Positions 26,101-53,570 are shown, counted from the first letter of the stretch. The stretch: DNA of 64,000 nt from Yuukianura sp. NJ FZ-2021 (GCA_046563655.1 CM102287.1:7688001-7752000); one strand, 5' to 3'. Numbers and translations are program-made. The notes: generated by a model not told the origin, from the sequence alone.

Positions 26101-29100
26101 ATCGTTCCAATTCAAACGGATTGATAATTATATCGGTGTTTTACGGACGTTATACAGAAAAAACGTAAAAGAAAGGTAAAAAGTGGGGAAACACTGCTAC
26201 AGTTCTGCCTTCTGCATGTCACCGCGACCTTGTCAAGTTTGGGTTAAAAGAATTTTGAGAGTTTAAAAACAGAACAAAAGAAAGGTCTTGGCGGGTCTTA
26301 CCAAAGAATTTTTTAACGCAGAGCATCAATTTGAGCGCGCGACAGTTTTTATCTTGCGTTTTGGCCTGAAATTTCACCCGCGCCTTTGGAATAAGCGAGC
26401 AGCGCATTGCAATTTTTCTATTAAAAAAGCTTTAGAATTGAGACAATTTTAGACAAACATTCGGTAATTCGGTACAACTCGGTAATTGCAATTAGTTGTA
26501 ATTATAGTTAAGTGTAAATCGTAGTTAGTTGTAACTATCATTTGTGAACATTGCTTCATGTACTAACCTTTGAGTCAATTCCAATAAGTTGGTTGCACTC
26601 ATCGCAAGTATTGGCAAAGACTGATTCGTAGCAGCGAATGCAGTAGGGATGATCGTCTCGCAGAACATAGCGTTGACCTGTCAGCGACTCGTCGCACTGC
26701 CAGCAGCAGAAGTGGGTGGAGTGCCAGTCCTTGTTCATGGCTTTCGTATACTCTCCGCTAAAAATCAACTGAAATTTCAAGAAAAGAAATGAAAATTATA
26801 ATTTCAAATTTTCCAATTTTATTTCAAATTTTTTTCAAACCCGTTCCTTTCTGTGCCTCCCCTTCTCTCAAGAATTCGTTAGTGAAGTTTTTAGCAACTA
26901 AATAGACTCTTAACCAGCGAAGCGATTGAAAGCGTTGCGCTTCATCGCTTTGACTTGTGTCAACTTGACACAGCAAATGACCCTTAAAAAATTCATAACT
27001 TCAAGGAACGGACATTTTCTAAGCAAATCCATTCTGAAAAACTGTTCGCGTAAAGAAAGTTCAAAGGATGCCCAAAATGAACAAATTCAAAAATATTTGG
27101 CAACTTTTTATTGTTCAAAAAATGTTGGTCACAAGTACAAAGCTCGATTTAAGAGCGGAAGTTTCGCTAGCGGTGGAAGTGAAAGAGCTGTTATGAATTG
27201 AATTTGGAAAAGGACAAACGTCATCCTGTTTGAATTTCATTTTGAAAAAGTTTGAAACTCATTTGACCTTTTAGAATTCGTTTCAAGTCTCATTTCCTTT
27301 GTAACTAAAAGTTTCCCATCCGCATCATCTTTCCAATTTGATTACTCCGACCAACTTCTACTTTGTTTCTCTCAGTCAGTCTTTTGTAGCAGCGAAAATA
27401 TGTTCTCCGCAAATTGTACAAAATCTAAAGCATGACGGCTGATACCATACCCCGTGAAATCTTATTTTCTCTTTCTCTCTTGTCCCAAATTCACATTTGT
27501 TGGGTAATTTCATCTTCCGGTGCCTAAACTCCTATAAATAAACTTCAGACAGCACATTTCGACTTGGCAAAATGCTAAGACATTCTCCACGGGAGAAAGT
27601 AAACGCAAAGTAGCACAAAGTACTAAAGTACACAAAGTGTACTAAAAATTTCAGTTTTGTCTAAAAAGTCTAAAAATATTTTAGAATGTACTAATTGAGT
27701 TGAGCAGCCAAACGCCAAATGACAAATGATTCTTTCTATACCAAATTGTATTGTCTTTCCATCGCAGGTTTAAAAAATTTCTTCGGCTTTGGTTTTTCCA
27801 AACTGAAGAGTGAAAGATTCTTTCTACTCGTCGTACTTCTACAGTGTGTTCCGAAATTTTCGTTTTTGAAAAACATTTTAGAATTATTGGAATTTTGAAA
27901 AACCTAAGCATTAAAAGACATCAATTAGGCTTAAATGCTACAACCCCCGCCACAGCCGAACCAAAATCCGCTAAATGTCAAGGCTCTTTAGAAAGCTTCT
28001 GTTTCTCTTCCCGTTTCGTTAATTTCCATATGGTTTTTGTATCGTCAATCACGAAATTCAGGAAATGTGTGGGAAAGTGTGCAAACAATGGTGGGAGATA
28101 GTTTTTATCGTTCCCGGGGGAGAAAGCGAAACAACGGCGGAGCTTTCAACCCCTAATTGTCTGCCTCTGATGAAGTGAAGCCTTGACCCAATGCTCTAGA
28201 CCTATAAAAGCACAGTACACCGCCGTTCCCACCGCGGTGGAGAAAGCGATGAAAGTGAAGATGAATCCAATTATTACCTTATCATTAGTCTCCTCTCCCC
28301 TGGCGAACCAAAACGCTTCAACCACCGTCATCAAAACTTAACAAATTTCAATCCATCATAACTTTCTTAATGTCATTCAACTTCTAAATGGTCCCACCGG
28401 AGTGAAAATGGCCCCACGGGAGGCATTTCCCGTTATTTGTGGCCAAGTAAGTAATGCCCCGTTGGGGTCAACTTCATTTCGGGTCAAATCAAGTCCTGTC
28501 TGGGTCATTGTCATACCTTTGATAACCAAAAAAGTATTGGACTCACCAGGAACTTTACGGTACTGATTCGTTTGAAAACAAAAAAAAACGCTAATTTTCT
28601 ACTTTCTACGTTGAAATTAATCGCACTTTGAAGAAACTGAAAGTGACAAAACGTTATTTTGAAAAACTCGGTATCTTAAACGAATTTTCGCTTTCCATTT
28701 TTTCGTTGTTTTTTTTTTGAAAATTTGAAGATTAAAAACTTGACAAAATTGACAGAAACGAACATTTCAGAATCTCAACTTTTACGAACAAGAAAGTGAG
28801 TCAGGCAATTTGTAAGTTTTTTTTCGACTGGCGTTGAATCGGCCCAAAAAAATTTCAAAATTTTGGTTCTGTACGTTGCTGGTTCGCCATCGGGGAGTTC
28901 GTTTTCCTTGCCGCCGGAACCTCCAAATTCAACCGTCTCCGTGACCTCTTCGACCTCAACTTGACCTCCGCCTTTGGTCGAAGAAGTCGTCGTCTTGGTC
29001 TTCCTGGTCTTCTTGACCTTCTTCTCCGTAGACACTTGCATTTGGACGTCGACGTCACCCATGATGACCACTACCTCTTCGGGCACTCAAACTTAGCAAC

Positions 29101-32100: not shown

Positions 32101-35100
32101 ATCTGTCTAGAAAAACACCGTAAACAATCGTGTTTCAAAATTTCAAAAACGCCAATTGACAAAATTTTGAAATTTAGTTCCGATCGTAAATTCTTTTACA
32201 GTTTGTAGTCTCCTCTCAAAAATCCTAAAGTTTGTCAATTTCTAGACAACTTCTTGAATTCGACACAATTTTCAAAATCTTTATAAAGTTCGGCTTATGA
32301 AAGATGTTGGCAGCACGTAATAAATTTTAGATCGATGGTTTCCATTCACTTTTTATATCGTTGACGTCAGGCTAATACTTTACGAGGAAGAAATTTTTCA
32401 AGAGAGACTTTTCAAAAAGTCCGAAATAGCTCTATATATCAAAATATCAAAAATTTCAACTTTAAATGTCATCGCTTCATTTTTAGAAGAGCCTTTCTCC
32501 ATAAGCTCTCCATATGTTTCGTAGTCGGTGAAATTTCAATCGCTGTTGGTTTCATTCAGTATGTTAGAATGAATTGAGTTAAGGCTCCAAAGTGCTACTC
32601 CCTGTGTCCATGTTCTAAAAATTGACAAGTTCCAAAAAGCAGACGATGAGCAGTGTCCCAAGGGCCCCCCTTTACTTTCACTTTGACATTGACAAAAGTC
32701 CTGGGAAATGGAACAGGGCTTAAAAGGGAAAATAATATGGCAGCATTCGGGCATTTTGAGTCTTTCTTTTTTCATATTCCTAGAAATGGAACAATTCCGC
32801 AGCAGAAGCCGACATTTGCCATTTTCCCGGAAAAAGCTTTAGGGCCCTTCTGCCATTCAAAATTCAAATCTCACCAGTCAACATTTTCTAAAATTGATTG
32901 ATCTTGAAGCTACTTCCTTTGTAAATACAAAGCTCAGACGCAACGAAAAGTCAGAAGCTGAAGACTCCATTATTCTAATCCCTCCCAATCCCAATGCTTT
33001 CTTCCAGTTTCTGAATTATGAATTTACAATTCCTGTCTACGCCTTTTGTTTATTCCAAAATGGCTAAAACAACCAAAGCCAAACCTAACCTTAGCCTAAA
33101 AACTAAAGGCTTAGAGGATTCAAAATCGCCTCATAAATTACCGACTTGACAAATTGCATTTGAGGAGGGCCGCTACTTTTAGGCTATAACTTGCAGTTAG
33201 GATTTTAGGTTAGGCTATGTGTTCTAGTCGAGGTTGTTAGGTTAAGCTATAGGTTATAGTTAGGTTGTTAGGTTATGGTTAGGCTGTTAGATGAAGCTTT
33301 TTAGACACTGGGCGACTAATGCTGCTTAATGTAAGCAATCCTCCTAAGTGGGACGTGAGAGCTTTTCCGTTTTCTTGATCCTTATGCTGATGAATTGTTT
33401 ACACTTTCACTTTCCAGCCACAAGCTCCAAACGACCAAGGTCAACAGGTAAAATTTGTGTGCCAAGATTGTGTAAAGTGAGCGTCAGTAGTGGCGATTAG
33501 GTTACGAGCCTAGCCTAACTCCTGAACTAACGTTATAGGACGTAACTCGTAATAAAATTGTCAAAAAGTGTAACTTTAGCTGAGGCGGGAGTATGAAAAA
33601 CTAATGTGCATATAAGCTAGGTTTACAGAAAATCGTGTTAGCTTTTAAATTACTACGTTTAATTAACAGTAGTAAACTTTTCCTGGAAATTTCAAATTTT
33701 GAGAGCTTGCAAGTTCATGATTTCATGAAATCTAAAACTGCAAAATGGAAATCCGACCCGCCCTTTGCCAACACATGAAACAGTATCACGAGAGCTAGAC
33801 TCGGGTAATGAAACAGTTCAATGGGCATGTAACAAGCATAAATTTTGTAACTGAAAACTCATTTCCAAATGTCATTTCAATTAACCTTCCGGGAATATTC
33901 TGTGTGTTGAAAATGCTCACGTGAAGTAATGAGAATTCAGCGATTTGGAAAAAGTCATTTTCCAGAGTAACTTTCTCTGTCCCACTCAAATTGCTTAACA
34001 ATTATCAAAAACTTTCCGCAAAACTTTCTCCCCGTACAACTACAAAGGGCAAGCATATCATGTTTGCAAAAAAACAAAAAGATTCCAAAAATTTTAATGA
34101 TTTAGGGCGTATCGTAAGATTTAAGTTGACATTTTGGAAAATGACACAGGAAATGCCAGTTTCAGGAACTTTTTTGATTGTGGTTCAGATTATTTCTTTG
34201 GAATTAAAAAAAAGGAGGGCAGAACCAGATGGTGTAATCAATTGCAAAAATAAAATAAGAGCCAGAACGAACATTTTTTAAATCCCGGTACAGAAGATGC
34301 GAATTCTCGAGATTTAGCAGAGCAAGAAGATGCAAATCTAAAAATAGCCTTAAAAGGGAGCCCTCTCCAATTACAGTGAGGTCCCATCAAGGGAAAAAGA
34401 ATGGGGAGGAGGATGGGCGTCAGTGGAAGCAACATCCGAAAGTATTCTCGGGACCAGTATTTCGCCATTTCTCTGTTTAAATTGGCAAAGTGCCTAGGTT
34501 TGGCGGTAAGCAAAAAATTGATCTAGTACTTTATGACCAATTCATAATAACGAGTAGGCTTTAAACGAGTCAACTCCCATTTTCTAAAAAAGAAAAACGA
34601 AAAAACACAGTTTCTACTTTTAGCTTATGGTTTTTAAAAAACCTTAGAAAATTCGGCTTCCTCTCCCTCAATCGGTGTTTAGAAGAAGGAGTAAAAAACC
34701 CGGGTTTTTTCTCCGCCAGATGGAGATGCGCAATTTTTTTCTAAAATGCTTAAGCTGTGCATACTTAACGCAAATTCGTAATAGTTACAGACGATTATGA
34801 TTGAAAATGCGTTTAGAAAACGTAATAGATTTTAAAAATGTCGAACATGGAGAACGAAGCGAAATCTACAAGGAACTGAATTCCTTTGTTTTGCTCCGAG
34901 TTTTTTCGCACTTTCTTTAGACCGATTTGAAAATTAAGCACCAAAAATTTTGAAGAATGGTTACCTCGTCACACGAAGCGCAGCGTGGTCGGAGCTGTTC
35001 AGCGTAATGTCGTTCACAGAAGAGAGAGTCATTGAAGGTACAGTAGGTCAAGTCCACCAGCAGTTCGTTACAGACGCTGCACACGAAGCAGTGGGGGTGG

Positions 35101-38100
35101 AAAGCCACCCCTTCACCGAATTTCGGAGCAAAGACGCCAAGGGTCCCCTGTCCAAGGGACTTGTTACAGGTACTGCAGTCCTGAAATGCACAAAAACAAA
35201 TTACGACAATTCAAAACCAGCCAACTCAAAATTCCAACACGCTTATTCCTTCTCCAATCACAACCTTTGGTGGGACTTCGTTAGAACAAAACTAAAACTT
35301 CTAGAACCACAATCAGAAATACTATGATCCGATTTTTGAAGTCTGTTTTAGAACGCTGAAATTTTGACGGACGGAGGTTTGTATTCCCTGAAGATCTATT
35401 TCAAAAATGGAACAAAAATACGCAACGAAATCTGTACTTCGCATCAATCAACAACGCAAGATTGACGGCTTAGAAAAGCGTCTCGTCTTCAGATAAACAA
35501 AAGACGCTGAAAAAGATGCAACAAACAATTTTCTCTTCGTCAATCATCTCCACATGGAACCTCCGTTCTCTTAATTAACTTCCATCAGTTCCAGTCACAA
35601 CATCACGTAAAGCAGCAAATCCAGACATCCAATCAGCGTCTAGATTGCTTTTCCAGTCTCTTCCGTGTTCTAACATCTTCAACTTTGTTCTAATTTTGAA
35701 ATGATGACAGAATTTGGAATCTTACGGTATCAGGAATGTCAACTGGAGTCACATAGGCAACGTCAAGAGCTACTTCATTTCTGGCATTTACAAAGTCCTC
35801 ATAGGCGGAATGATGCTCCTTTTCCACGTGTTTGCAGTAGGCTAAAGCCAAATCCTACAAAAACAAGATAAAAATTAAAACAACTTTTTTGGAAAACTTT
35901 TTCAATTTGCTCAATTTTGTCATACTTGTTTTGGAATTTGGTGCAGAATTTGTCTGTCTCTGTAGACTTCTCCAGGAGTGCCAGCTTTTGGAACTTTTTC
36001 CAAAGGATATTCTTCAAAGAACTCACGAACCTAATAAAAAAAGATGAAAGTAAAACGTTTGTTCAAAAAACCTTTGTACTAAAAACCTTTGTTTAAAAAA
36101 CCATTTTTTAAATTAAGTTTTTATTATGTAATATGAAATTTGTTACTGAATTTGTTACCTGTTGTGCTGAAATGTTGCTGGGGACAAATGTAAATCCGTG
36201 GGATTGGTTGGGCCGACTTTGCGTTGCGGCAAATCGACTGAACTGGTCCGTCGTGCCTCGCGACGTCGTTTCTTTACTGTTTAGCCCAAGACGATCTCGT
36301 ATACTTAGCCATTCGTCATGGGACAGGTCATGCGCATCTTTGTCACATTTGCAACTGTTGCACGTCTTCCTGAAACCAAAAAGAAACGTTTTTCAAATTT
36401 TTTGAATCAATCAATTCAGCATTTTAGACCAGGTACGAATTTTTCAAAACTTTGGATTAGGGCTGGATCATACGATGAGTTCATAATTTTCCTTAAGTGA
36501 CGTTAGAACAAAACATTTGATTAGAGTTAGGTTCACTTTAGGGGTAATTTTAGGCTAATCATAGTTTAGGCTAAGATTAGGTTAAAGTAAACACCGAAAT
36601 AGCACACGTTTAGGTTATGTTTTACCGGACGATGAGTTCATAGAGTTCCTGTTGATTGAAGACCTTGCAGTAGAGTTCAAGGACGCGGACACAGGCGTAC
36701 TTGATTCCTGGCCAAGGGACGAGGTGGGTGTCAAACCCCAAGGAAACAGGACATGGACAAGGGTGCATGGACCCTTCACGGCATTCCTAAGTGGCCAAGG
36801 CAAGGAGCCCTTCAAAGTTAGGCTATGTTAACCTAACTTAATTCGCAGGTCAAAGGTCAAAGGTCAACGACCCCTTCTCGTAAACTCAAGTTTTCTTACA
36901 GAGTGAAAGTGGTTTCACTTGACTCTTAACTGTTTATTACCGGCTCCAAAAGATTCCATCTTACCCCAGAAAGTAAAAGTAAAAGTACAAGTAAAAGCGA
37001 AGTTAAAAGTAAAAGTGGAAATGAAATCCCACAAAACAAAGGGAATTCGTCTTCTAATGGCCCTTGAAATGTTTGGGCAATTCAAGAATCAGCAGCAGGA
37101 ATTACCATGAAAGTTAAGTGGAGAGGCTTCCAGAAAACTCAAATGGACTCCAGAGGGGTTCCAGCCACCAGTTTCAGCCTTTTCAGCGTCCCGCTTTATT
37201 TTGCTTACAATGAATACAGAAAGGGAGTTGCAGAAGACAATTGAAATTGGTGTAACAATAGTAATAACAATAACCGTAAGTGATTATGAAGACGTCCATG
37301 CTCCAGCTCCCTTCCGAGCCAAGTGAATCCTCGTCAACTTTCTCCAGTCCCTGGGCCCTATGCTGCCCATATGTATCGATCTTAACCTTTTACTTTACAG
37401 AGTAAGAGAAAGTGAGAGAAGGGGGATGGCCATAACACAGAAAGTTGAAGGCATATGGACTCACAGCTCCACTTCCTTAGCTTTCACATTTAGGACAGTT
37501 TTTTCGGTTTTTGAAAAGATAGAGACTCAGGGACAACACATATTGAAATTTTATTGTTCCCCATAAATCAATCTGACCAACTTAAAATATTTTGGAACCA
37601 ACAGTTTTCCAAAGTTCAACCGACCGGAGGGAACAGGAAGGAAATCAAGCAGAAGGCGCACTGATTCAAAAGTTTTGGTGACTTACACTAGTTTCAAGCC
37701 TGTCTAAGGAACCGGAACGGAGGGTGAAAGCAAACTTTCACTTCAACACACTTTCTCAATTTCCTGTCTTACATAGTCGTTGCTCAATTAGCCAAAAAAT
37801 TTAGTCCTAGTCAGTGCCAAGTCAAATACAAATGGCTTTCAAAATTAAAACTGAAATGAATTTCAAATTCCACATTTTAAAAAAAATTGTCAAAATGCAA
37901 TTTTTTTTTAACTTTACCTAAAGTTATCTTACATCCGTTAACAAAAAGAAGTTGACAAACTCAGAATGAGCAACTCCAGTGATTAATTAAGTGATCAGAA
38001 TTAATTTTTCAAAAAGTATTTGCTGAAAGAGTTCAAGTTTCGAGATTATTTACATTAGTAGATTACAAAAAACTTCAATTTGAAAACGGCATGAATTGCA

Positions 38101-41100
38101 TAGTTTCAATTCCACTTTAATTTTTTTCTGCACTTAAAAAGTCAATTTAAAAATTAATATTCCGGTTGGACGAGGTTGGACATGAAAATCTGCCTCAAAA
38201 TTTTTGTCGATTTCTCGATTTTTCTCAAATTTTGAAAATAAAATGCCATGCGTGGCCGGTTAAATAATTCAAATCTCCTGTTGTCTACTGCTTCTGCTGG
38301 AGATTTGAGACTTTAACAAGGCGTTAATTTAACAAAGTCTAAATTGGTTTGAATTAAAATGACAAAGAATTTAGGCAGTTATCAACTAGACAGTAGTTTT
38401 TAGAGCACAAGAAAGAGATGATAAGCGCTGAAATTCAATTTTTTTTCGGAATCTTCGGAAATCCCAGCAGTAGTTTCAAAATTTCTTTCTGAATTGTTTT
38501 TGTTCTCCTGGATTTCCATACTTTCACTTTACTTTCTCCGCTTGGCGTCCCTCTGTTATGCAAACGACTCGTAGAGTCAACGCTGTTAGGATAAAAACGA
38601 CTAGAAAATAATTAAAACTTTTACGCTTCCTTCCAGCTCCAGCCGAAATCTAAAGCATTTTAGATTTACCGATTTAAAACTTTTTCAGAAAAAAAAAGCG
38701 CCTCACAGAGTTTCATTTCTTTTTCACTTTGTTCAAACAAATTCCGGAAAAGACAAAAAAGTTCCAAGAAATAAGACTTTGGGAAACCAAATCCTCCCAA
38801 TCCATCTTTCTGTTCTAATTTCCTGTTCTAGGACATAGCCGGATGTTCTAAATTTTTCAAAAAAGGAGAAAAATTTGTTGTTTTGAAAACTCACAGTTGT
38901 GTAATTGACTCGAGAGTGATTTCCATGGTTGACCAATTGACTTTTTAGAAGAACCAGAGCAGTAACCACCGCCTGACCCAAGTTAGCCAAAGTTTTTAGC
39001 TTAATTGGAAGATTGGGAAGTGTTTGGGTGGACCAAATGAAATTGACTGTGAGGATGATGATGAAAAGTAGCAGAGGCGGTTTGTGGCTTGGATCACTTT
39101 CCCATCTACTCACTTAGACAATCAGGAGAAAGTAAACAGAAGCCTTTCTAAAAATCCAAAGTCCACGAGCTAGCTCCAGGGACGCTGATACTGTCATTTC
39201 CTGGTTATCGGTAATTGTTACTGGAAGCATCACCGTACTACTTCCAGAAAGAGAAAGTAATGGGATCATTATGTACACTTTTAGGAAACAGAAACAGCTC
39301 TGTATCAGTTCCCAAAAATAATGGGCCATCAACACGCAAGGTCACGCAAGTGACCCATCCAGACTTATTCAACATTGTCAGAAAAGGAAAAAAAAAGCAA
39401 AAATCAGAACCGTCAACTTTCACTTTCAACTTTCACGACATTTGGCCTTTCCAGCATTGCAAGTTCCATTACGCTGTCCACTTTAGAGTGAAGTGTTGTT
39501 CAAAATTCAAAACTTGGCGCAACTTTGTTTGTCCAGAACAAATTTTCGCAAAAGAAAAAACAACAAAACGAAAAAAGAAAAGAAAGTTTCGGATTGTCAA
39601 CTTTCACTTCCAACTTTCAGAAAGTTTCACACTTCGATTGTCAGATTCTCCGCCATTTTCTGCCGGCTATTTTTGATCAATTCTCCTCTCTAGGATTTTA
39701 GTTTCTAAGTTCCTAAAATGTCAAAGCAAACAAAATGAGAAACAGGTCAAAGGTGAACTGTTGCGAACTTTATTTGTGCACATTCTTCTTTAGAAAGGTG
39801 ATCTGTGAACTGAGAAATTCCGAACGCCTTTGTGCCAGAGTCCAAATAAGTTAGGAATTCTCACAAATATTTGATAATAAATCAAAATAGGTTTGATCTG
39901 GATCCAGGAGAAAACGGAGTACACAGTAACATTGTTCCTAGATCTTGTTTTTCTCATTTCCTTCGCGGCAAGAAAAGGACATTGTGTGAAATTGGAATCT
40001 GATCATAGCTGGTAGAAATGAGAAATTGGAGAAAGGAATTCAGAACCGAAAGGCATAAACCTAAAGATTGGACGTTTCCAGGACTTTCGGTTTCCAGCGG
40101 AAGCGACTGCTTTTGATCTAATGGAACCCAAACACGTCTCCAGGATTCCAGATTCCTCGGATTCCAAGAAATCAAAAACAAGACACGACACTGCTCAACT
40201 CCTCATTTCAAAAGGGCTTAATTGGACTCTATTGTTTTAGAACATAGCCTCGAGGTTTCAAATTGGAACAATACAAACTACCACAACTGTCATTGTTATG
40301 TTAGGCTAGATTCTGCTGATTAAGTTTCAGAATTCGGGTTTTGAGTTGAAACAATGTCGGAAAGAAGCGTTGAAGCAGGAAAGATGAAGCTATCTTGAAA
40401 AGTTATGTTTTAGCAACAGGGATTGTGGCGTTTTAAGCACGTCCTGGTTAGGCTGTGAGTGTCAAGGGTGATAAAAGTGACCAAATCTTTTTAAACTTTG
40501 CCGGGAAGATTGTGCAGGAGTAAAGTTTGGGTTCAAAAGAGAGAGATAAAAAGTGTGGTGAAAGTGGAAAGTGGAAGTTGTGAAGGGAAAAGTCACGTCT
40601 ATTAAAACTTTTGCAATTTTGAGGAAAATCATATTTTGAACTCCATTTTTTCCTGGTTTTGGTCCTTATACAGTGGCGGCCAAAATTATTGGGACACCCA
40701 GTGTAAAAATTTTTAAACAACGATAACTTTTTAACGAAGTGTCATAATTAATAACTCGATACGTCATTTTATTCAGAAAATAGTTCTTTCCAATCTCCCA
40801 AGTTTTTAGAACTTGAAGTCAAGCGGTTTATTTTATGGAATTTTTTAAACTCAAAACGTCAAAATTCTCGCGGACAAAATTATTGGGACAGCTGGGGTTT
40901 TGGAGCGAAATCAACAGTTATTGGCATTAGTTTTCCATCGGTAAGTCACCTAACTTAATTTTTAGTACTTACTAACACTTGTAGTTAATTGTTGATTAGT
41001 TTTTCAGAGATGGTTGGCAATATCAAGGAAGTTCCAGGACCGATACGCGACCTAATCATTCAAGGTTGGGTTGGTGACGAAAATGGTACAAAATCAGTTC

Positions 41101-44100
41101 GTCAGCTGTCCGAATTGTACCACGTACCCAAGTCAACAGTACATAACATCATACAAAGGTACCTCAAGACCGGCCATGTCGAAAACAAAGTCGGAAGGGG
41201 CCGTAAACCAATTCTTACTGAGAGGGAAGTTCGCCTGATCACCAAGAAAGTGAAGCTGGACAATCGAGTAAGCGCCGTAGAACTGTCCAAAACACTCAAA
41301 AGTGACCTTGACACGAAGTGAGCCGAATTTATCCATAATTCCGTTAATAAATTCCAAGGTTTAGCAAAGTACTCTTTGAACAGTACGGGGGCTGACTTCG
41401 GTGTCAAGGTCACTTTTGAGTGTTTTGGACAGTTCTACGGCGCTTACTCGATTGTCCAGCTTCACTTTCTTGGTGATCAGGCGAACTTCCCTCTCAGTAA
41501 GAATTGGTTTACGGCCCCTTCCGACTTTGTTTTCGACATGGCCGGTCTTGAGGTACCTTTGTATGATGTTATGTACTGTTGACTTGGGTACGTGGTACAA
41601 TTCGGACAGCTGACGAACTGATTTTGTACCATTTTCGTCACCAACCCAACCTTGAATGATTAGGTCGCGTATCGGTCCTGGAACTTCCTTGATATTGCCA
41701 ACCATCTCTGAAAAACTAATCAACAATTAACTACAAGTGTTAGTAAGTACTAAAAATTAAGTTAGGTGACTTACCGATGGAAAACTAATGCCAATAACTG
41801 TTGATTTCGCTCCAAAACCCCAGCTGTCCCAATAATTTTGTCCGCGAGAATTTTGACGTTTTGAGTTTAAAAAATTCCATAAAATAAACCGCTTGACTTC
41901 AAGTTCTAAAAACTTGGGAGATTGGAAAGAACTATTTTCTGAATAAAATGACGTATCGAGTTATTAATTATGACACTTCGTTAAAAAGTTATCGTTGTTT
42001 AAAAATTTTTACACTGGGTGTCCCAATAATTTTGGCCGCCACTGTAGGTGCTCCATTCAGAGCAAAGAATCTAACTTTGCCATGAAAAGTGCGAAGAAAA
42101 TTGGAAATTGAATACCAAAATTTTTTTTGTCCATTTTAGGATTATACTTTTGTAATTTCAGTTCCAATTTCCATCGAGTTCAAAATCATAAGAGGCATTT
42201 TTAACAAAATTCGTGTCATCTTTGCCAGTTATGCTGGATTACGCACCAAAGGGTGCGCAATTTTTGGCGCGAAAATAACAGCCCTGCTATGATTAGGGGC
42301 TTTACGGTACTTCTCTTCGGTAGACCTTGGTCTAATCATATCTCTGGCCGAAGTGTTAGATTTATGAGGGTCGGCAAGAAGACTTTCCTTGTCCTTTCAC
42401 CGAGATGAGACTAATTGACACCGGGATTTAAAACTTTCTCCACGGCAGTCCGCCGTGGCCCACCGTACTAAGTCTAGCCACTGCCTCTTTGGAGCTGTGG
42501 GAATTTTAAAAGTGAGAATTGACAGGAGCGCTGAAAGTGGAGCTCCTAAACATAATGAGGACGTGGCAGTGGCAGTAGCAGTGGGGAAAGGAGTCTCAGG
42601 AGACACACAAATTCCCACAAAACGTCCCCTGTCACTTTCTTTTTCCGCTCCACTTGGACGCTTTCCCCACAGACCCACCACAAGGTGGCTCACTTGGATG
42701 TTCCACCGAGCGGTGGCTCTCTTTAAAACATCTACTAGCAGGAAAAGGCTAGTGCTGCTTCAAACTTCAAAATTCTCAACTTTCCCCACTTTCTCCTCGA
42801 AAACGGTCAAATTTAATGGTCTGAAATAATCAGATTCTATTTTCTACTCCACTTGAACTTGCACTTTTCCTGTCTTTTCTGGCGACAACCAAAGTCGAAG
42901 TTCCTCGAAATGAACCAAAGTGAAAGTCTTTCGAAATTTCGAAAACTTCAAAATGCTCCGGGACTTTCACTTCAATTGCTTTAAGGTTACACTGAAATTG
43001 TAATTTCTTGGTCTTCGTTCCATTGTTTTGCCTCAAAGATAATTTTGGTGAAAGTGACATTGAGTTGTTTAGCATAGTGGAAAGTGTTTAGACTTGACAA
43101 TTCTCAGGTCCTAATTTCAGACTCACCCGTCGTGATTTCTTTGTGAAAATAGTGTCATTTGTATTCATTTAAGCCCTTCTTTCCCTCAGTTCCATTTCAT
43201 TTACGCTTCGTTCCCGTCTTCCTAATTAAATTCTCTTCCGAATCACATTTACTTTCTCCATTTCCATTCCAATTCTCACTGCCACTTTAAGGCTATGCAG
43301 GCCTAAGGTAAGCTCGTTCCAGGAACTAGCTAGACAAATGAAACAAATACAAAACAGAAAGGTTTCTCATAAACATACCTTTTGTAAGCAAGATCTAACG
43401 CTACCGCTACCTCTAGCACTAGAAGCACCGCGCTAGTGCTAAATCTAGCAGCAGTTGCTTTCTCAGCAGCCTAGCCAAGAACCATAATCCTCCAATTTCC
43501 CATTGTCTTTTGAAAGAAAAACCTTGTTTATTATTTCATTCCTTTTAACGACCATGCAGGTTCTAAGAGAAAGGCTTCTAGAATCTATTATTATCCGCAC
43601 ATTCAAATACATCTATTCCATAATTCTCTAGAAAATCTCCAGCATTAACTTCCAAGTTGTTAAAGGTTAGTTGCAAAACCTAGCCTTATCCGGACATTCG
43701 AGTCTTCGGTTGAAGTAAACTTTCAGACACAAATGTACCCATGAATTGGAAACTCATTACTCACGCTACACTATTTACTTTAACAACGTGCAGCTTACAA
43801 TGGCAGATACAATATGGCAATTTGTTAGACTAGGGTAGATAACCTAACCTTGGATGGGATGTGTATCCAGTTGTATTGCTGGGTAGGAAGAAGCTGAAGT
43901 TTACTTCAGCTTTATTCCTGATTCCTGGTCCAATCAGGAATCTCCAAATTCCTGATTTGATCTCACTTGGTTTAGTGTCTAATTTATTGGCGGGTGAAAT
44001 CGAGCGTAGCGGTGGGAAAATCCTGACAAGTTGCGTTGCGTTTTAGGTTTTTAGAGTGAAAGTAGCATGCGGAGCCAGAGAAAATATTTGTTAGGCGAAT

Positions 44101-47100
44101 GAGTAGAAATGTCAAGACCAAACGTCAAAAAAGTTGGCACTAAAAGCACGTAGATCAAGCAAATAAAAAACAGTGATTGAGGAGATTCGGAGAAAATCAA
44201 ATCAACTTTCTTTTCTTCTACAATCCTGCTAATCGAGTTTGTTAATTAATTTTAACAAGAAAAAAATATGAACAAACTCTAACTAAGTTAATTACTTAGA
44301 ATTTTTTTTTCTAAGAAATTACCGCCGCTTTGAATTTAATTTTTAGCATAATCTAGAGTAACTTTCTGCTAAAAAAAATTCACTTTTCAATTCATTATTC
44401 ATTCATTTAAAAAAAATCAGAATTCAAAACAAGAAAGAAAAAGTTTTTTTTTGTGAAATTTAAACTCAACAAATAGTCCCACGGTGCGGTAATACATTTC
44501 GCCTTTACGGTTTGTACGCAACTGGGAAATTAAATCTTAACATTTTTAAATTTAAAAAAGGCATTTGAAATGGCACAAAACATATTCGTCAGTCACAACA
44601 TATAATTTTTTGCATTTCATAAACGAGAAGTAAGCAGCATTTACTCGCCAAGGTCAAGGTCAAGGTTAGTCAATAATACCAAAACACGTATTCCATTTAT
44701 AGTTTGATTTTTGAAGTTAGAATATCATTAAAATTCAAAAAGTTTCGAAAGAATTTAAAACTTTAGAATTTAACTACGATTTCCAAAAATTTCTTCCAAG
44801 AATCAAATAATTTTAGTTATCTTGAACAGCATTTTTTGGCTTTCTCTACCGTTAAATACTGCTCGCTTTTAAAGTGAATTGCTTTAAATTGTTTCACCTT
44901 CATCCTTGTTCCAAGCGGTAGTTTATAAGAATCAAAGAATGAAAATATTTCGAAAATACTTGAGTTTACGAGAAAGGTTGTTGAATGAATGAATAAGTTG
45001 GGCACTTTCTCCTAGAAGGTTTGGTTCCTTGCAAGGTAGAACATGCACTTGAAAAGATCCAACCTGTAACTTGTCTTGTCTCCAGACGCAAACAAACAAA
45101 AGACCACAAACACTTCAGAAGATGCTGGTACTGCCGCTGATGCTTAACAAATGTTGTTGGAGTGTTGACTGATCACCGAATGACAACCACTCTTGTCCTG
45201 GCTCTAGTGAAAGTCAAACAGTACTTTGGTGAACCTTGGACTTGGACAACACTTGACTTTGTTGGCTCCCTGCCACTTTCCCTTCTAAATGAAAATAATC
45301 CTCCTCAGATCCTGTTCTTTTTTTCCAAGTGTTTTCAAATGAAGGGAATTAAGATGATGACGACGGTTGGGAGCGCTCAGCGTTTCAGCGTTCAGCCTAA
45401 CAACGTTAAGCGTCGACGGAGAAGTAAAGATGCCTCGCGGTGAAGACACTTATTCAGACGACGCTGCTTGAATCAGAATCCGAGGAACTAGGATCCGGAA
45501 CTGGTGAGATCCGAATCGGAGCAAACTCTTACACTACTACTCGCCTATTCTCCTTCACTGTGTTCCGCTCACCAAAAAATCTCAGCGAAATCCTCCTACA
45601 CGCTGACGCTTTCAGCCGATTCTTACAAGTTTTTTGTGTAAGTACTTCACATTGGACCATAATGTTCCTAAAAACCTAACCTAAAGCTATTCACTTTACG
45701 GAAAACAAATCTCCTCCTTTCTCCCATTCACCTGTCACTAGTTTTTTCAAAAAATGAAAAATACTTTTTTCTACAAGGCATTTGCTGCCAGTTTAGTTCA
45801 AGTTCAGAACAGAGGGGTCAGAGTCAGAAAAACAGACAAGTTTTTTAAAACAAGATTTTTTGTTTAAAAGAAGCACAACTGCAGGAGTCTGAGCTCTCCA
45901 AATGTCAGTCACGACTGATTTTAAATGAAACTGAAGTGACAGGCGGAAGGACACGACGAGATAAACATTGAGGCGTTTTCAGCGCTCTTCCTGCCAGCGA
46001 TTTTCTCTCTACTAATTGAATTTTGAAGGCTGACGTGCTAGTAATGATAGTTTAATTAAAACTGTTGACGTCTCTGACTCTATTTCAAGCAGAACTTTCA
46101 AGAGTCCGGTATTTTGAAACAGAATTTTGAAAACTTCAATTTACTTTAAAATCATAAAAGTTTGAACAGTTCGATTCGTTCAGAATAGAATTTTAAAAAG
46201 TTCAATTTCATTGTTGAAAACAAAAGAGTTTGTGGCATTTCACCTAAAGTCATTTTGAAATTCTAAAATATGGAAATATTGGAACCATTTTACAAAAAGT
46301 AAAAACGTTAAAACAAAAACTTCTAGAAGAGAAACTACAGAGATTAGAATCAGTTATTTTTTGAAAAACGAAATCATTTTGACAGCCTACAGATTGGTAT
46401 GGTTAAGGATTGTCTATGTCTAGGAAAATTTATACAAAATGTAATGGAATTGATGTTGGTAGAATGCAAAATGAAGGTTAAAATGGAACAACCGAGCTCC
46501 ATTTTGACCAAAAACTATCCTACAGCTAAATAAAAACACGGTTTTTCCATTTTTCAAAACAAATTGTGTCATATTTCTAAAAAAAAGAAAAAAGTTCGTA
46601 AAAATGTGCTTTTGAGTTTTCGTTTTTGTAATAACAATGAAGCTTCCAGTTAACATAAAAAATCATTGCCTTCAAAATTCTCAAAACTCTACTTACAATA
46701 GTTCCAAAAATATCTTCTTCTTCTTTATTGAATTCGTTATTGAATTCTGAATTTTGACAAGTTGTCACAATTTTGATTCAACTTTCGCATTAGAATAGAA
46801 TGGAATTTAATTTAGTCAATTACATTTAGTACGGTTTTCCAAATTTTCAAATTTTGTCGATTTTTGAAACATGTTGTTTTTTTTTACTATGTCGCTGGCT
46901 TGTTCTTCAACTCTGTTATTTTAAAACGGGTTTTTGTTCCATGTGTCGCCACATTGTGTTCAACTGTATTACTTTTTAAAACAGGTTTTGCTCAATATGT
47001 CGCCGAAGTGACATGATTGTCTCCAGCGTTAGTGATTTGAATGGCCCTTAGCAGGAGACGTCTTTATGACCACAGAAAATAGTGAAAGTGTTGAGAGGCT

Positions 47101-50074
47101 AAAGGATTCGGTTGGCTCATAAACCCGTGACTGAGATATGATAAACACAAGTCCAGGAAATGAGGATTTGCCTTCCTTATCCCCCGAGGTCACCATATGC
47201 TTTTTACCCGGGTTTCTACTTTTTCCCCCTAGAAGCACCTAGGTTACCATACTTTACACTTTCCAAAATGCCCGCATTTTCTCCTAAAATAGTAGTCATG
47301 AGATGTTCCTTAATTGGCTACCATCAACACCAAACCAACCCAAAAGACTAAAGAATCCGGGCATCTCTGGAACAAATCCTTCGTCCAGGAACATTACTCA
47401 TCCTTCATCAAGGGAAAAATTTAATGGACTTTTGTGCCATAAATTTGAGGGCATAAATTTGGAGCTGGAAATCAATAACGACGGATCCTTATTACTGTCT
47501 ATTAGGAACCAGAGGCAATGTAGAATGGAACTTTGAGATTACATTTGTGAAAAAATTGGAAGTTTTTGGCAGAAGCTAAAACAAAGATGAGTTATGTAGG
47601 AGGGGCCTCAGATGTCATTGATGTAAGAGAGAACAAATAAATAGAAATAGGGAAATGGTGGGTTCATTTTAGCAACTGACTGAGAGGGAGGCGGTTGAAC
47701 GAAATGTCGGTTTTTTCGGAGAAGTTTTTCGGTTTTTTACAGTAAGAAATCTTGTTGTCGGAGCTTACATAGATTACACATTATCGTATTTCTTGAAACA
47801 GATTTCGGAAAAACTCTACTACTTCACTTCTTCTTACACCCAATGCTAAATTTATTTTCAAAATTTTAATGGTGAGCGTGAGAGGCAGGAAATGGCATGA
47901 AAAAGCTCCGCCGACGCCATTACACTGTAACTTTAGTATACATTACAGATACACATACGCAACGCAACAAAATTACGAGAAACCATTTCCGTAAACTTTT
48001 TTTTTGAAACGAGGTAAAAAAAAAAATTAACTAGGTGAATTTTTTTTTCAAAGTAAATTACATTTTTTAGTCAAAAACAAAAAGTTGGACGGAAAATATT
48101 ACATTTAAAAAAAATGGCCTTCGGTTTTACGTTTTAAAGTGTTCCAAAAACAAGACTGCTGAAAAAAACGAAGTGTACGAAAAAGGAGTTAGTAGATCTC
48201 AACAAATTTAAGTATTTTCAATACTTATAATAATTTGCATTTTTTTTTTCAAAAATTTGAAATTTGAAAAAAGCGTGAAAGGACTACACAGAAGATTTCG
48301 TGGAATTTGAACCCGTACTGTGGTACGTTGACTCACACTTTAGTACTAGGAAAACCATTCCATTGTTAACCACAAAAAATAGGATTTTCGGGAGATAGTA
48401 AACTACAGAAAGATTCGGGTAGTGCTGCCCACGGTGTATGTCGTGACCGTGAGTAAGTGAGACACCGTGGTCGTAGTTTTCACGAAGTTGAATGACGCTC
48501 CGATTGTCAATCGGAAAGTTAGGTTAGGTTGGATCCTATTCCAGGGTAACACAATTCCGTCCTAATGGATTGGAAATCAGAGATAGTAAAGAAAAACCGT
48601 TGATTTCCTGGAAATGATCTCCTCTGGACTTTTCCATTTTCCAAAATGCTTTCTCCAGTTCAAAAGTTCAAACAAGGATGAGACCATAGCATAAGTCTTG
48701 ATTACAATTCCGGAAGATCGAAAACACACGAAAGTGAGTCTGATTGACATAGGATGTCAATTTCAATTTTGGTCAGAACAAACACCTCCGCCCTTCGTCC
48801 AAAAAAACTTCATCAAGGAATTTCAAGGAACCTGGCCATTTATGGTCTTCCTCTCAGAAAAATCATCAACTTCAAATCCTCCAATAGCCAAATAGCCTTC
48901 ATCTCAAATCCCAATTCGAAACACACCACAAACTACAAAAAAGTACTTTACGCCATGCTGTTACGCCATAACTTCTTCAAGTGTAAAGTGAAATTCGTTA
49001 AGCCAAACAAGCACGAATTGAATTAGTCCAACTTTAATTGGCAAAGTTTGCAAAAATTCTGTTTTTGCTGTACGCTCTTTCCTCTTGGAACCAAAACCAA
49101 GTTTACGATGATAAGATTTTTGCACACATGCGAAAATTAGTCTAAAACGCATGAAGCATGAAGTGATTAGCGTAATTCCGGACATATGGGACATCGGACG
49201 AAAGCCAAAACGAAGTCACGACAAGTTTTTGAAAGAGTATGTTCGGAGAACATTGAAAAATGAATGAAAAAAATTTATGGCACAAGATTTTCTATGGCTT
49301 TCAGTGAATTTAGAAAACATAAAAATGAGAACCCCCAAAAAAGTTGGCAAACTCTCAAAATAAAAAGGCAGAAAACTGAAAAATGTGGTTCCATAACAGT
49401 TATAAAGCGGGACAGGAAGGATGTTGAATTATTTCAAAATTTTGGAGGATATAATCTAAAACAGGGAGGAAAAGAATTTATGAGTAGGTGACATACCGCC
49501 ATGGATGTGGTATAAATCCGGATGGGCATTCACAGTCTCGGCACGGACTTCCAATGTCATCAATCTGCTCAAAAAACAACAAGAGAAAGTAAATGACGAC
49601 ATTTTTTGGGAGTCGTAGGCTGCGCTGCAATAAATTCAGTGGGAATGCGGATCTGTTTCAAAGTCAAAACAATTCATACACTTCTCACGAGGTCATTGAC
49701 CTCACATCAAGGTTAATCACCCTAACAAACAGTTGGTACTAGAATCTAGACGCATTTTTCAATGTTGTAGAGCACATTCCGAGGGATAACAGAGATCATC
49801 AAAAGATTCTCAAGCGAAGCAAGGACTATGAGGGGGAAATGTCAGATATGTACCGAAAAGCTGACTCAATTTTTAAATTCAAATTTTGGCGGCAACGCGG
49901 CTGCAAATTTAATATTTAATGTTGCGACATTACTCGAGAGGATGGCGACGACGGATGACCGTTTGTCTTTGTCGTCTGCAAATCCTTGTCGTGTTGTTGG
50001 ACTTGGACCGAAGATGACGTCACGGTGGTCTTGGAGTTGGATACACCGTAAGCGTTTGCTAGGGACGCCGACAT
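20105..50074 (-). CDS. Lmpt: Limpet / FHL-prickle-testin family protein, long isoform (Cys-rich region, PET, 6 LIM domains)
   Basis: Exons 50074-49934, 49564-49497, 36369-36159, 36030-35926, 35854-35726, 35180-34965, 26768-26568, 25940-25848, 25751-25670, 21816-21699, 21599-21398, 21129-21093, 20262-20105 join with consistent phases. CRDCECPSGFIPHPWRKTCNSCKC; PET (QIPKQDLALAYCKH...FVNARNEVALD); GEYTKAMNKDWH; ends CPDCAKQKLM. Confidence 0.9.
28875..29062 (-). CDS. Lmpt: Alternative first coding exon of Limpet (short, four-and-a-half-LIM isoform)
   Basis: ATG at 29062 (MGDVDVQMQVSTEKKVKKTRKTK...), GC-rich coding-like composition. Phase-2 donor GTACAG at 28874 fits an internal acceptor TTTTAG at 26758, giving ...PAT-GEYTKAMNKDWH. 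Confidence 0.7.
41010..41321 (+). pseudogene. Truncated Tc1-type transposase, DNA-binding (HTH-GRPR-HTH) part only, 103 aa
   Basis: KSVRQLSELYHVPKSTVHNIIQRY (HTH), GRGRKPILTEREVRLI (GRPR-like linker), VSAVEL. Preceded by a 5'-UTR intron 40941-41007 (GTAAGT, TACTAAC branch point, TTTTCAG). Confidence 0.85.
41361..41705 (-). pseudogene. Truncated Tc1-type transposase, DNA-binding part only, 114 aa (mirror copy)
   Basis: Same translation as the + copy up to SDLDT, then EVSPRTVQRVLC-stop, completing the second HTH recognition helix. Confidence 0.85.
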
Positions 50075-52473: not shown

Positions 52474-53570
52474 TCAATAAAACAATGTTATAACAAGCAT
52501 TGCACTTCCTACGGATACCACGATGGAATTCTTTGTACTTGGAGCAGCGGTTATGTAATACTCGTAGATGAAAGAGTCAGTGTCGTATTCGTCGCAATGA
52601 TTGTATCCAGTTTTGTGCTCGCAACAGTCCCAAATGATTCTCCAGTATCCTTCCATTCTATAAGCATTTTCCGTTGTGTCCTCGCTGTAAAGCTTCCCAA
52701 TTTCTGCATAGTATCTCCTGTAGCCACCTTCAGCTAGCAAGTCCCAGCAAATGTCGTCCAGAATCTAACAATTTACATTTTATCTCCATCAAAATTTAAA
52801 ACTGAATAAAAAGTTAATTTTGTCGCTAAAAGTTTGCAATGTCAAAACTTAACCTGAAGCTCTCTGCTATCTGCGCGTTTTTTCCGCTCCAGAACTTCGT
52901 TCGTTTTGGGACGTGCAGCACCAAGTTTCGCCAGTACTTTGCTCAGTCGGTTCAAAAAGCGATGCCAAGGATTGCTAATGGTGTCGTTCTCAGGAAATGC
53001 AGTTGTCGTGTTGTTCTCTGACTCGTCATCGGTTTCGGCTACTTCTGGATAACTTGCGTTGGAGTCCGAAGTGATCTCGGGATCGTCTCCGGTGATGTTT
53101 GGATTCGGAATGACTTCGGGAGAATCTATAATGGTGTTAGGAGTGACGTCGGAATCTTCTCCAGTGATGTTCCGAATGTGCTCAGAATCTTCTCCAGTGA
53201 TGTTCGGTGTTACCTTGAAATGATGTCTAATGATGTTCCGAATAGCATCGGAATCTTCTCCAGTGACGTTCCGAATGAGCTCGGAATCTTCTCCAGTGAT
53301 GTTCGAAGTGGCGTCAGAAATTTCTCCAGTGATGTTCCCAGTGAGCTCAGAACCTTCTCCAGTGATATTCGGAATGACGTCAGAATCTTCTCCAGTGATG
53401 TTCTGAAAGAACTCAGAATCTTCTCCAGTGATGTTCCGAAAGAACTCAGAATCTTCTCCAGTGATGTTCCGAAAGAACTCGGAGCCTTCTCCAGTGACGT
53501 TCGGCGTAACCTCGGTCACAAGAGCCACGAAGAACAAGATTGCAAATACGGGAATGGAAAATCGGTTCAT
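52474..53570 (-). CDS. Secreted/surface precursor: signal peptide, N-glycosylation repeats, RKKR site, 4-Cys domain, hydrophobic C-terminus
   Basis: Exons 53570-52854 and 52764-52474 (phase 0). MNRFSIPVFAILFFVALVTE; repeats NITGEDSExxx; ERKKR-ADSRELQ|ILDDICW...WDCCEHKTGYNHC; ends SIVVSVGSAMLVITLFY. Confidence 0.8.
53067..53501 (-). repeat. Coding 33-bp (11-aa) tandem repeat, ~13 units, two degenerate
   Basis: Recurrent GAATCTTCTCCAGTGATGTT on the + strand; 11 N[IV]TG sequons in translation. Confidence 0.9.

Follow-up and report, generated by a model that had tools for sequence, protein, structure and literature searches.

A polymorphic fold-back derivative of a Tc1-like transposon in a Limpet-type intron

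The window, meaning the whole stretch of 64,000 nucleotides that was analysed, contains within an intron of a Limpet-type gene what is very probably a recent and polymorphic insertion: a fold-back element, non-autonomous and derived from a Tc1-like DNA transposon of the IR/DR type, with predicted hairpin RNA as a likely by-product. The element is composed of two inverted copies of the left end of the transposon. Its features are the following, in coordinates of the window:

40669..40670, no strand: left copy of the TA target-site duplication (sequence; single TA in empty-site contigs)
40671..42044, minus strand: fold-back Tc1-like element, 1374 bp (sequence, repeats, fold, contigs)
40671..41314, plus strand: left arm, with the inverted repeat (IR) carrying two direct-repeat (DR) motifs, the leader and transposase codons 1-101
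40676..40696, plus strand: outer copy of the 21-nt direct-repeat motif in the left IR (mirrored at 42019-42039)
40870..40890, plus strand: inner 21-nt direct-repeat motif (mirror at 41825-41845)
40941..41007, plus strand: putative 67-nt GT-AG leader intron, from sequence only (mirror at 41708-41774)
41315..41324, plus strand: imperfect inward continuation of the palindrome; compared with the right arm, it lacks 1 nt and has one mismatch
41325..41361, minus strand: loop segment encoding 12 mid-transposase residues (DDE domain region, about aa 211-222)
41362..41363, no strand: join of an internal deletion private to the window copy (contig comparison)
41364..41705, minus strand: 114-aa truncated transposase ORF in the right arm, with a paired-type HTH N-terminus
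41401..42044, minus strand: right arm, identical to the left in reverse complement
42045..42046, no strand: right copy of the TA target-site duplication (sequence, contigs)

The repeat search delimited two arms of 646 nt each (40669-41314 and 41401-42046), 100% complementary and separated by 86 nt, with each arm comprising 644 nt of the element plus the flanking TA. Direct string comparison confirmed that the left arm is the reverse complement of the right one. By BLASTN, the pairing reaches 656 of 657 nt (99.7%); a 1-nt gap and a single mismatch occur where 41315-41324 faces 41390-41400. Since this imperfect stretch still pairs, the unpaired loop measures only about 65 nt (41325-41389), and the fold-back junction is located at the 41325 end of the loop segment. 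The termini read CAGTGG and CCACTG and, in line with Tc1-like target-site use, the TA on each side of the element corresponds to a single TA at the empty site. The arm alignment and the sequence confirm the two inverted left-end copies, intact termini and TA duplication described in the earlier note. The arms are the only pair of inverted repeats of at least 40 nt within 5 kb in the 64-kb window, and no further copy of an arm was found elsewhere in it. On the minus strand, the arm that comes first is the sense one and is co-directional with the host gene. Both halves come from the same end, giving a near-complete palindrome, and the element works like a foldback MITE, yet it is not miniature: while a MITE is expected to be of miniature size and to lack coding sequence, this element has 1374 bp and a 114-aa ORF fragment.

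Tc1-like terminal inverted repeats begin with CAGT. Each arm contains the 21-nt motif twice, with the two copies being 95% identical and spaced 194 nt, and the family's IR, roughly 220 bp long, has the inner copy at its inward edge. These features point to an IR/DR layout, with two predicted transposase-binding repeats and a long IR of about 200 bp. The putative leader intron ends 2 nt before the ATG at 41010, which opens about 101 transposase codons per arm. A scan for the 25-nt terminal motif gave 0 matches in each of the metagenome, viral and genome contig collections.

The left ORF (40989-41321, plus strand) stops at 41321, because the 1-nt deletion and the mismatch at 41315-41324 place a stop in the frame of this copy, while the right-arm ORF continues in frame beyond the arm and into the loop. 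HTH_32 (1.4e-9) and HTH_23 (4.2e-6) were matched above their curated cutoffs, and the matches to HTH_SB and HTH_Tnp_Tc3_2 fell below their own cutoffs. The N-terminus has 402 relatives at E<=1e-3, the best being 45% identical, and the full-length relatives include proteins of 340-346 aa with HTH_Tnp_Tc3_2 and DDE_3; a comparison with longer proteins only gave no match. The bipartite paired-like HTH N-terminus characteristic of Tc1-like transposases is present. The loop codons align to columns 211-220 of five full-length Tc1-like transposases, in a mid-transposase motif, and just 12 residues of the DDE/D catalytic domain are left (41325-41360, minus strand). Judged by its sequence, the window copy is non-autonomous, a Tc1-like element by descent and not a functional member of the group. 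No intact transposase gene or autonomous element of the fold-back family was seen in the searches made.

Public contigs from two studies (samples S1 and S2, runs X1 to X4; 32 pieces listed, with 228 more) contain the empty site with a single TA in both samples, as a joint from 40668 to 42045 that skips 1376 nt, with 2 letters fitting either side of it. The joint is found in X4 (record 25, 882 nt, depth 4.89), X2 (depth 13.4) and X3 (depth 36.4), and record 2 of X1 (depth 160.8) passes from the left to the right flank with the TA between them. The empty-site sequence predicted beforehand was thereby recovered from both samples. Because the site is polymorphic, the insertion is considered recent. 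Among the 32 pieces listed (there being 228 more), no contig bridges 40668/40671, 42044/42047 or 41361/41364 as in the window, so the window copy itself is known from the assembly alone.

The inner fold-back junction is multi-copy in both samples, with a depth about 3 to 27 times that of the flanks, although the copy number is rough because the depths are summed contig means and the ratios differ within one sample (about 15-fold in run X1 and about 4-fold in run X3). The piece 41285-41361 is present in contigs of all four runs with 0-2 differences, and it reaches a depth of 2354 in X1 (flank 161), 156 in X3 (flank about 40) and 130 in X4 (flank 4.9). Unrelated flanking sequence follows at least 11 of the loose ends listed (40666-40669 and 42046-42050); it comes from elements sharing these termini, which are not provably fold-back copies. 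Together with the multi-copy junction, these other flanks support the proposal that the element may still be mobilisable.

The common form of the family has a loop that is 285 nt longer and continues the transposase frame. Record 27 of X4 (431 nt) consists of 41285-41361, 287 letters and 41364-41430, and these 287 letters are replaced by two in the window copy. The record stops 30 nt into each arm, which is the signature expected from a k=31 graph when the loop is attached to the same arm in both orientations. Loose ends at 41361 and 41364 in X1, X2 and X3 match the longer form, and record 22 of X3 is a single 646-nt contig representing exactly one arm (41401-42046). The window copy is a further deletion of this common form. 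Two other variants of the family diverge exactly at 41825, one through a joint from 41325 to 41825 (X1, X3) and the other as a loose end before 41825 (X2).

It could be argued that the inverted duplication arose in place after an ordinary insertion and never transposed as a fold-back, given that local rearrangements through abortive gap repair are common at transposon donor sites (a passage of PMC3814204). This origin is highly improbable and was rejected, since in two studies the shared junction has 3 to 27 times the depth of a single copy and the site is empty in the same data sets that hold the junction. An assembly artefact, in which mis-joining turned an ordinary Tc1 copy or a chimeric read into a palindrome, would account for the perfect identity of the arms and for the locus-specific junctions missing among the public contigs listed. 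However, the palindrome stops exactly at the transposon termini, where it is bordered by TA on either side and by collinear flanks that are unique, its inner end is asymmetric, and the same inner junction and loop topology recur at multi-copy depth in two independent studies (records 5, 11, 21 and 27). The artefact is scarcely credible on this evidence and was likewise discarded. As the same junction occurs in two studies, the fold-back is older than the window insertion. Where the earlier note suggested a recent origin or ongoing conversion, it is the insertion that is recent, and the fold-back itself predates it.

The element lies in the following intron:

36370..49496, minus strand: 13,127-nt GT-AG intron of the host, a PET-LIM gene of Limpet/FHL2 type

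The splice donor (49496-49495) follows the exon end at 49497, and the acceptor (36371-36370) precedes the exon start at 36369. The flanking exons were placed solely via BLASTP against all 120 listed homologues, and in 19 of the 20 homologues that both exons match, their alignments fall on adjacent residues. Splice sites and homologue alignment agree with the location proposed earlier, in the 13-kb Limpet intron between these two exons. Pfam returned nothing for either flanking exon, even at E<=10, BLASTP of each exon against the single homologue P0155 was insignificant, and the PET-region exon gave no match against longer proteins only. LIM exons are located downstream of the intron, with relatives named limpet, and the closest relatives of the host gene are arthropod and nematode proteins alike. 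No Rfam family was detected at the gathering threshold in 36000-50000. The neighbouring WDR47-like ORF is assigned generic WD40 clusters only by the ESM Atlas.

Any transcript through the element, host pre-mRNA included, would form a stem of about 650 bp, for which thermodynamic prediction gives an MFE of -1235.7 kcal/mol. The stem would take in the 5' UTR and roughly the first 100 codons of the transposase, and would be a Dicer substrate. On this model, the hairpin is most likely a by-product of the structure and not a selected function of the locus.

The earlier note had proposed a 'killer'-like locus in the manner of Mu killer, whose effective function would be to silence the family in trans through host-intron read-through, dsRNA and Dicer siRNAs. 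The arms do contain an inverted TIR with the 5' part of the transposase, as in Mu killer (parts of PMC3440606), the predicted stem is very stable, and the intron looks transcribed, with the sense arm along the gene direction. Furthermore, RNAi is fed by fold-back transposon RNA in nematodes and mosquitoes: read-through transcripts of Tc1 in C. elegans yield fold-back RNA and siRNA (a section of the review PMC3878927, on Sijen and Plasterk 2003), and Aedes MITEs yield fold-back RNA and endo-siRNAs (a section of PMC3259105). Inverted duplications of Ac/Ds have also been described to trigger silencing (excerpts of bioRxiv 10.1101/2020.01.07.897926). However, the empty-site contigs reveal that other genomes in both samples lack the insertion, which excludes a fixed host function, and with the fold-back present in many copies no single locus stands out. 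In addition, no target element with an intact gene was seen in the searches made, and spliced introns are short-lived. The silencing locus is improbable in view of these points, and its Dicer-2/Ago2 step assumes an arthropod host. A limited literature search found no Tc1-type fold-back with transposase codons and demonstrated siRNAs, and the relevant portions of a Bari survey describe MITEs with complex rearrangements and no fold-back of the type of the window element (PMC4877112).

A more tentative idea, which is conceivable though doubtful, is that of a self-limiting mobile 'killer': the transposase would move fold-backs whose 650-bp stem targets the 5' part of its own mRNA. In a second part of this idea, self-templated (snap-back) repair synthesis, and not merely youth, may keep the arms identical. 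The window arms are identical to each other and to the S2 contigs, and the single arm contig of X3 (S1) differs from them at 41541, 41569, 41783 and 41810. The S1 variant at 41783 and 41810 takes the whole depth in all three S1 runs, so at least at these two positions both arms appear to have changed together between lineages sharing the junction. If this idea were true, each transposase burst would sow hairpin genes into transcribed introns, raising RNAi against the family.

Under the preferred reading, a recent insertion of a mobile fold-back derivative, the ancestor would have had everything to the right of about codon 222 replaced by its own left 656 bp in inverted orientation. This probably happened when the gap left by excision was repaired: the strand copying the 220-bp right inverted repeat may have switched to the identical left repeat and copied inward. 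Subsequent end joining with small errors would have left the 1-nt deletion and the mismatch at 41315-41324. As both ends would then be complete left ends with both predicted transposase-binding repeats, a transposase supplied in trans could cut and paste the derivative; the source of this enzyme is assumed, the best protein relative being only 45% identical. The derivative would have spread to several or a few dozen copies, and the window copy would have lost 285 bp more from its loop and inserted at a TA in the Limpet-type intron. Fold-back Tc1 families explained by template switching during gap repair are of a kind already known: both sides of Goblin derive from one end via template switching in SDSA, and PALTA, CeleTc2 and Hairpin are further foldback families (passages of PMC3814204).

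The locus offers a clean, datable example of how a cut-and-paste transposon gives rise to a long palindromic derivative that still moves. In present-day populations one can detect a form resembling the parent, a deletion form that looks intermediate, the common fold-back and also a copy with a further deletion. With a polymorphic site and a stem that includes transposase coding sequence, a direct comparison of carriers with non-carriers could address whether RNAi fed by such fold-backs restrains the family. For annotation purposes, the structure should be treated as a transposon insertion in an intron, and not as a host gene or a dedicated regulatory locus.

As far as passages of PMC3814204 describe them, Goblin (derived from Ozma, in Aedes aegypti) and the C. 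elegans families PALTA and CeleTc2 also have both sides from one Tc1/mariner end, and they share with the window family the TA duplication, the multi-copy state, seen here for the junction, and mobilisation in trans, the last being presumed here. The origin described for the Goblin type, template switching between inverted repeats in gap repair followed by end joining, is the same as that proposed here. However, the window element is larger than a MITE (1374 bp, with about 1660 bp in the common form). In comparison with the Goblin type, its duplication also extends 436 bp past the IR with about 105 transposase codons, the family loop keeps up to about 115 further codons, and the window arms are perfectly identical. 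Mu killer is alike in that hairpin RNA is expected from read-through of a neighbouring or host gene, but it is described in parts of PMC3440606 as one locus with demonstrated silencing, whereas the window structure belongs to a multi-copy family that presumably transposes. Mu killer and Ac/Ds are also Mutator or hAT elements in a plant RdDM setting, while the window element is Tc1. In C. elegans Tc1 and in mosquito MITEs, read-through RNA folds on inverted repeats and the dsRNA enters RNAi (sections of PMC3878927 and PMC3259105), a route for which the window analogue is predicted; their stem is a short TIR, in contrast to the predicted stem of about 650 bp with coding sequence in the window element. 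Finally, Drosophila hpRNA loci share the long inverted repeat, which could give Dicer-2-dependent endo-siRNAs in both cases (parts of PMC10317233, PMC12697358 and PMC7919454), but they are fixed host loci whose targets are genes, in many cases selfish ones, whereas the window element is a polymorphic transposon insertion.

The element is a real fold-back derivative of a Tc1-like transposon. A repeat search identified an inverted repeat at 40669-42046, with arms of 646 nt each (40669-41314 and 41401-42046) that are 100% complementary and lie 86 nt apart, and a script check confirmed the arms as exact reverse complements. In BLASTN the pairing reaches 656/657 positions, broken by a 1-nt gap and a single mismatch, and leaves an unpaired loop of ~65 nt (41325-41389). 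The inverted left-end copies with TA outside them, as described in the earlier note, are borne out by this complementarity and by the CAGTGG and CCACTG ends. RNA folding of the element gives one long hairpin, with a predicted minimum free energy of -1235.7 kcal/mol. Across the whole 64-kb window there are no other inverted repeats of at least 40 nt (up to 5 kb apart) and no further copies of the arm. A 30-nt match (87%) between 45214-45243 and the loop at 41350-41379 (BLASTN, E=2.6e-4) is probably due to chance.

Features of the fold-back element
40671-42044: element proper, 1374 bp, CAGTGG at the start, CCACTG at the end, TA directly outside both ends
41010 (ATG), plus strand: transposase frame of the left arm, ~101 codons
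41364-41705, minus strand: transposase frame of the right arm, 114 aa, open for 13 codons further, into the loop

Each arm carries two copies of a 21-nt terminal motif (40676-40696 and 40870-40890 in the left arm; 95% identity, spacing 194 nt), a layout that we take to be that of IR/DR-type Tc1-like elements such as Sleeping Beauty and Minos. The left transposase frame lacks one base at 41314/41315 and runs into a stop. The 114-aa product of the right frame matched HTH_32 (1.4e-9) and HTH_23 (4.2e-6), both over the curated cutoffs, and HTH_SB and HTH_Tnp_Tc3_2 below them. Its 402 relatives at E<=1e-3 (exhaustive HMMER; top identity 45%) include proteins of 340-346 aa with HTH_Tnp_Tc3_2 and DDE_3 domains. 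Furthermore, the loop at 41325-41360, on the minus strand, aligns to a conserved mid-transposase motif of the full-length relatives (alignment columns 211-220). Taken with the frames, this alignment implies that the element, read on the minus strand, comprises the left end as far as codon 114 and, beyond a deletion join, 12 codons (~211-222) followed by the inverted left 656 bp.

Five public sequencing runs, all of DNA and none of RNA, contain the stretch: X1, X2, X3 and X5 derive from sample S1 (study P1, organism A), and X4 from sample S2 (study P2, organism B). Contigs of X1-X4, here called records, were placed on 40300-42400. Judged by depth, both studies contain the fold-back junction in multiple copies. 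The window element is one copy of a family, which speaks against a single special locus of the 'killer' kind that the earlier note had envisaged.

Contigs carrying the fold-back junction
X1 record 5: 41286-41361, depth 2354, flanks 161
X2 record 11: 41275-41361, depth 6.9
X3 record 21: 41285-41361, depth 156, flanks about 40
X4 record 27: 41285-41361, depth 130, flanks 4.9

The ratios of junction to flank depth, ~4 to 27, are rough and vary among runs of one sample. The termini, too, are multi-copy: the arm contigs reach depths of hundreds to thousands, against 5 to 160 in the flanks, and among the listed pieces of X1-X4 at least 11 loose ends at 40666-40669 or 42046-42050 lead into unrelated sequence.

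The loop differs between the window copy and the family. X4 record 27 is a single 431-nt contig running from 30 nt inside the left arm to 30 nt inside the right arm, as results from a k=31 graph when a loop has one and the same arm attached to it in either orientation. X3 record 22 coincides with one complete arm (41401-42046, 646 nt). In place of the window's two letters at 41362-41363, X4 record 27 has 287, with corresponding loose ends at 41361 and 41364 in X1, X2 and X3. By our own reading of the 30-letter consensus strings, these loose ends provide a transposase-like continuation on the minus strand, in the frame of the ORF, and 287 nt is about the distance expected from codon 114 to codon 211. 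The form common in the family thus consists of the left ~1016 bp of the parent element and, after it, the inverted left 656 bp. Judged by its loop, the window copy is this form with a further internal deletion.

Other variants join the 41325 breakpoint to the terminal inverted repeat (IR) at 41825 (X1 record 7, 573 nt, depth 68.7; X3, depth 53.9) or, in X2, place 255 unrelated letters ahead of 41825. Both diverge exactly at the inner repeat motif (41825-41845), which sets the normal IR boundary of the family at ~220 bp and shows that relatives exist without the extra inverted 436 bp. Arm depth in S2 is 797 over the outer 496 nt but only 177 further in (X4 records 28 and 29), and a 255-letter loose end diverges at 41551 (X4); this points to a different, more abundant derivative sharing only the outer 496 bp. 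A 336-nt contig of low depth (X2 record 12, 41504-41839, depth 81), with 25 differences from the arm (~7% diverged), indicates a putative older or sister subfamily in S1.

The insertion is recent and polymorphic today. In X4 record 25 (882 nt, depth 4.89), 42045 follows straight on 40668; each side is at least 255 letters long, and two letters (TA) fit both. The same joint was found in X2 (depth 13.4) and X3 (depth 36.4), with a side of 30 each. X1 record 2 (319 nt, depth 160.8) covers left flank, the TA and the first 13 letters beyond it in the right flank. The empty allele predicted from the sequence was thus recovered exactly, in contigs of both samples. Among the 32 pieces listed (a further 228 lie outside the listing), none bridges the element's own flank junctions or the 41361/41364 join, so the window copy itself rests on the assembly. 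X2 also has a second, rarer joint (40663 to 42041, skipping 1377, depth 19.7, side 30) that retains the element's last four letters before TA and might reflect either an excision footprint or simply variation in the target site; 40663 is also where X2 record 9 ends.

No difference separates the two window arms from each other or from the X4 arm contigs (0 other letters in records 28 and 29). The S2 flanks differ from the window by 6 letters and 1 gap on the left and by 18 letters and 8 gaps on the right (X4 record 25). With arms identical over 646 nt despite these differing flanks, the element seems to postdate the divergence between the host haplotypes. Against the single arm contig of X3, the window arms differ at four sites (41541, 41569, 41783 and 41810), in a comparison made between contigs, where assembly may mask minor variants. 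In X1, X2 and X3 the whole depth at 41783 and 41810 belongs to the variant. Since the junction is shared, a single origin of the fold-back is likely, and differences common to both arms then weakly suggest that the arms are homogenised, by gene conversion or by self-templated repair synthesis.

It is proposed that the fold-back arose when a post-excision gap was repaired off the sister or homologous copy. The strand that had finished copying the 220-bp right IR would re-anneal to the identical left IR and be extended inward across the leader and the first codons, before it was end-joined to the second nascent strand. Such a join accords with the mismatch and the 1-nt deletion found beside the junction. 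Since it carries a complete left end on either side, the derivative could be moved by transposase supplied in trans. Evidence for such movement comes from the TA duplication, from the empty allele and from the multi-copy junction, and what had been called possibly still mobilisable is evidently so. No transposase source for the family was seen, the nearest protein relative being 45% identical.

The host gene lies on the minus strand, where LIM and FHL2/3-type LIM domains were found in ORFs 34920-35210, 26559-26795 and 21344-21610. The exon at 26559-26756 matched 543 PET+LIM proteins; the 120 listed, from arthropods and nematodes, show 78-92% identity and are named limpet, four-and-a-half-LIM protein 2/3 or prickle-3, so the gene would be of Limpet type by the names of its relatives. 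When the exon ORFs on either side of the element were compared with these 120 proteins, the upstream ORF (49478-49657) matched 20 and the downstream ORF (36111-36392) matched 111. In 19 of the 20 proteins matching both, the matches lie end to end or share a few residues (in P0248, residues 25-44 and then 43-103); the exception is P0229, where they are 183 residues apart. This adjacency, together with the GT after 49497 and the AG before 36369, places the element inside a 13,127-nt intron, in agreement with the Limpet intron proposed earlier. The sense arm has the same direction as the gene. The neighbours are a carboxylesterase exon (13003-13425, plus strand; COesterase 3.6e-53) and a WDR47-like exon (16719-17819, plus strand; WDR47_COR 1.5e-26). 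A 248-aa open frame at 52845-53588 (minus strand), with a signal-peptide-like start followed by tandem 11-residue units, may encode a putative secreted repeat protein.

A stem of ~650 bp, with the transposase 5' region in it, would form in the host pre-mRNA or in any transcript that reads through the element. There is about an even chance that some small RNAs arise from the fold-back copies; that these matter for the activity of the family is unlikely. Precedents come from three systems. In C. elegans, RNAi draws on read-through Tc1 transcripts whose TIRs fold together (Sijen and Plasterk 2003, via PMC3878927), and endo-siRNAs of Aedes aegypti fall preferentially on MITEs, which the authors credit to foldback dsRNA (PMC3259105). 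Maize Mu killer is described as an inverted duplication of a TIR and the 5' part of mudrA, with a presumed read-through hairpin (PMC3440606).

Yang et al. (PMC3814204) give the same model of origin for Goblin, both sides of which come from a single subterminal stretch of Ozma, a Tc1/mariner element, and describe several MITE families as essentially foldback, which simple deletion cannot explain. The element thus belongs to the already known kind of foldback non-autonomous Tc1/mariner derivatives; distinctive in it are a stem that contains transposase coding sequence and its present-day polymorphism.
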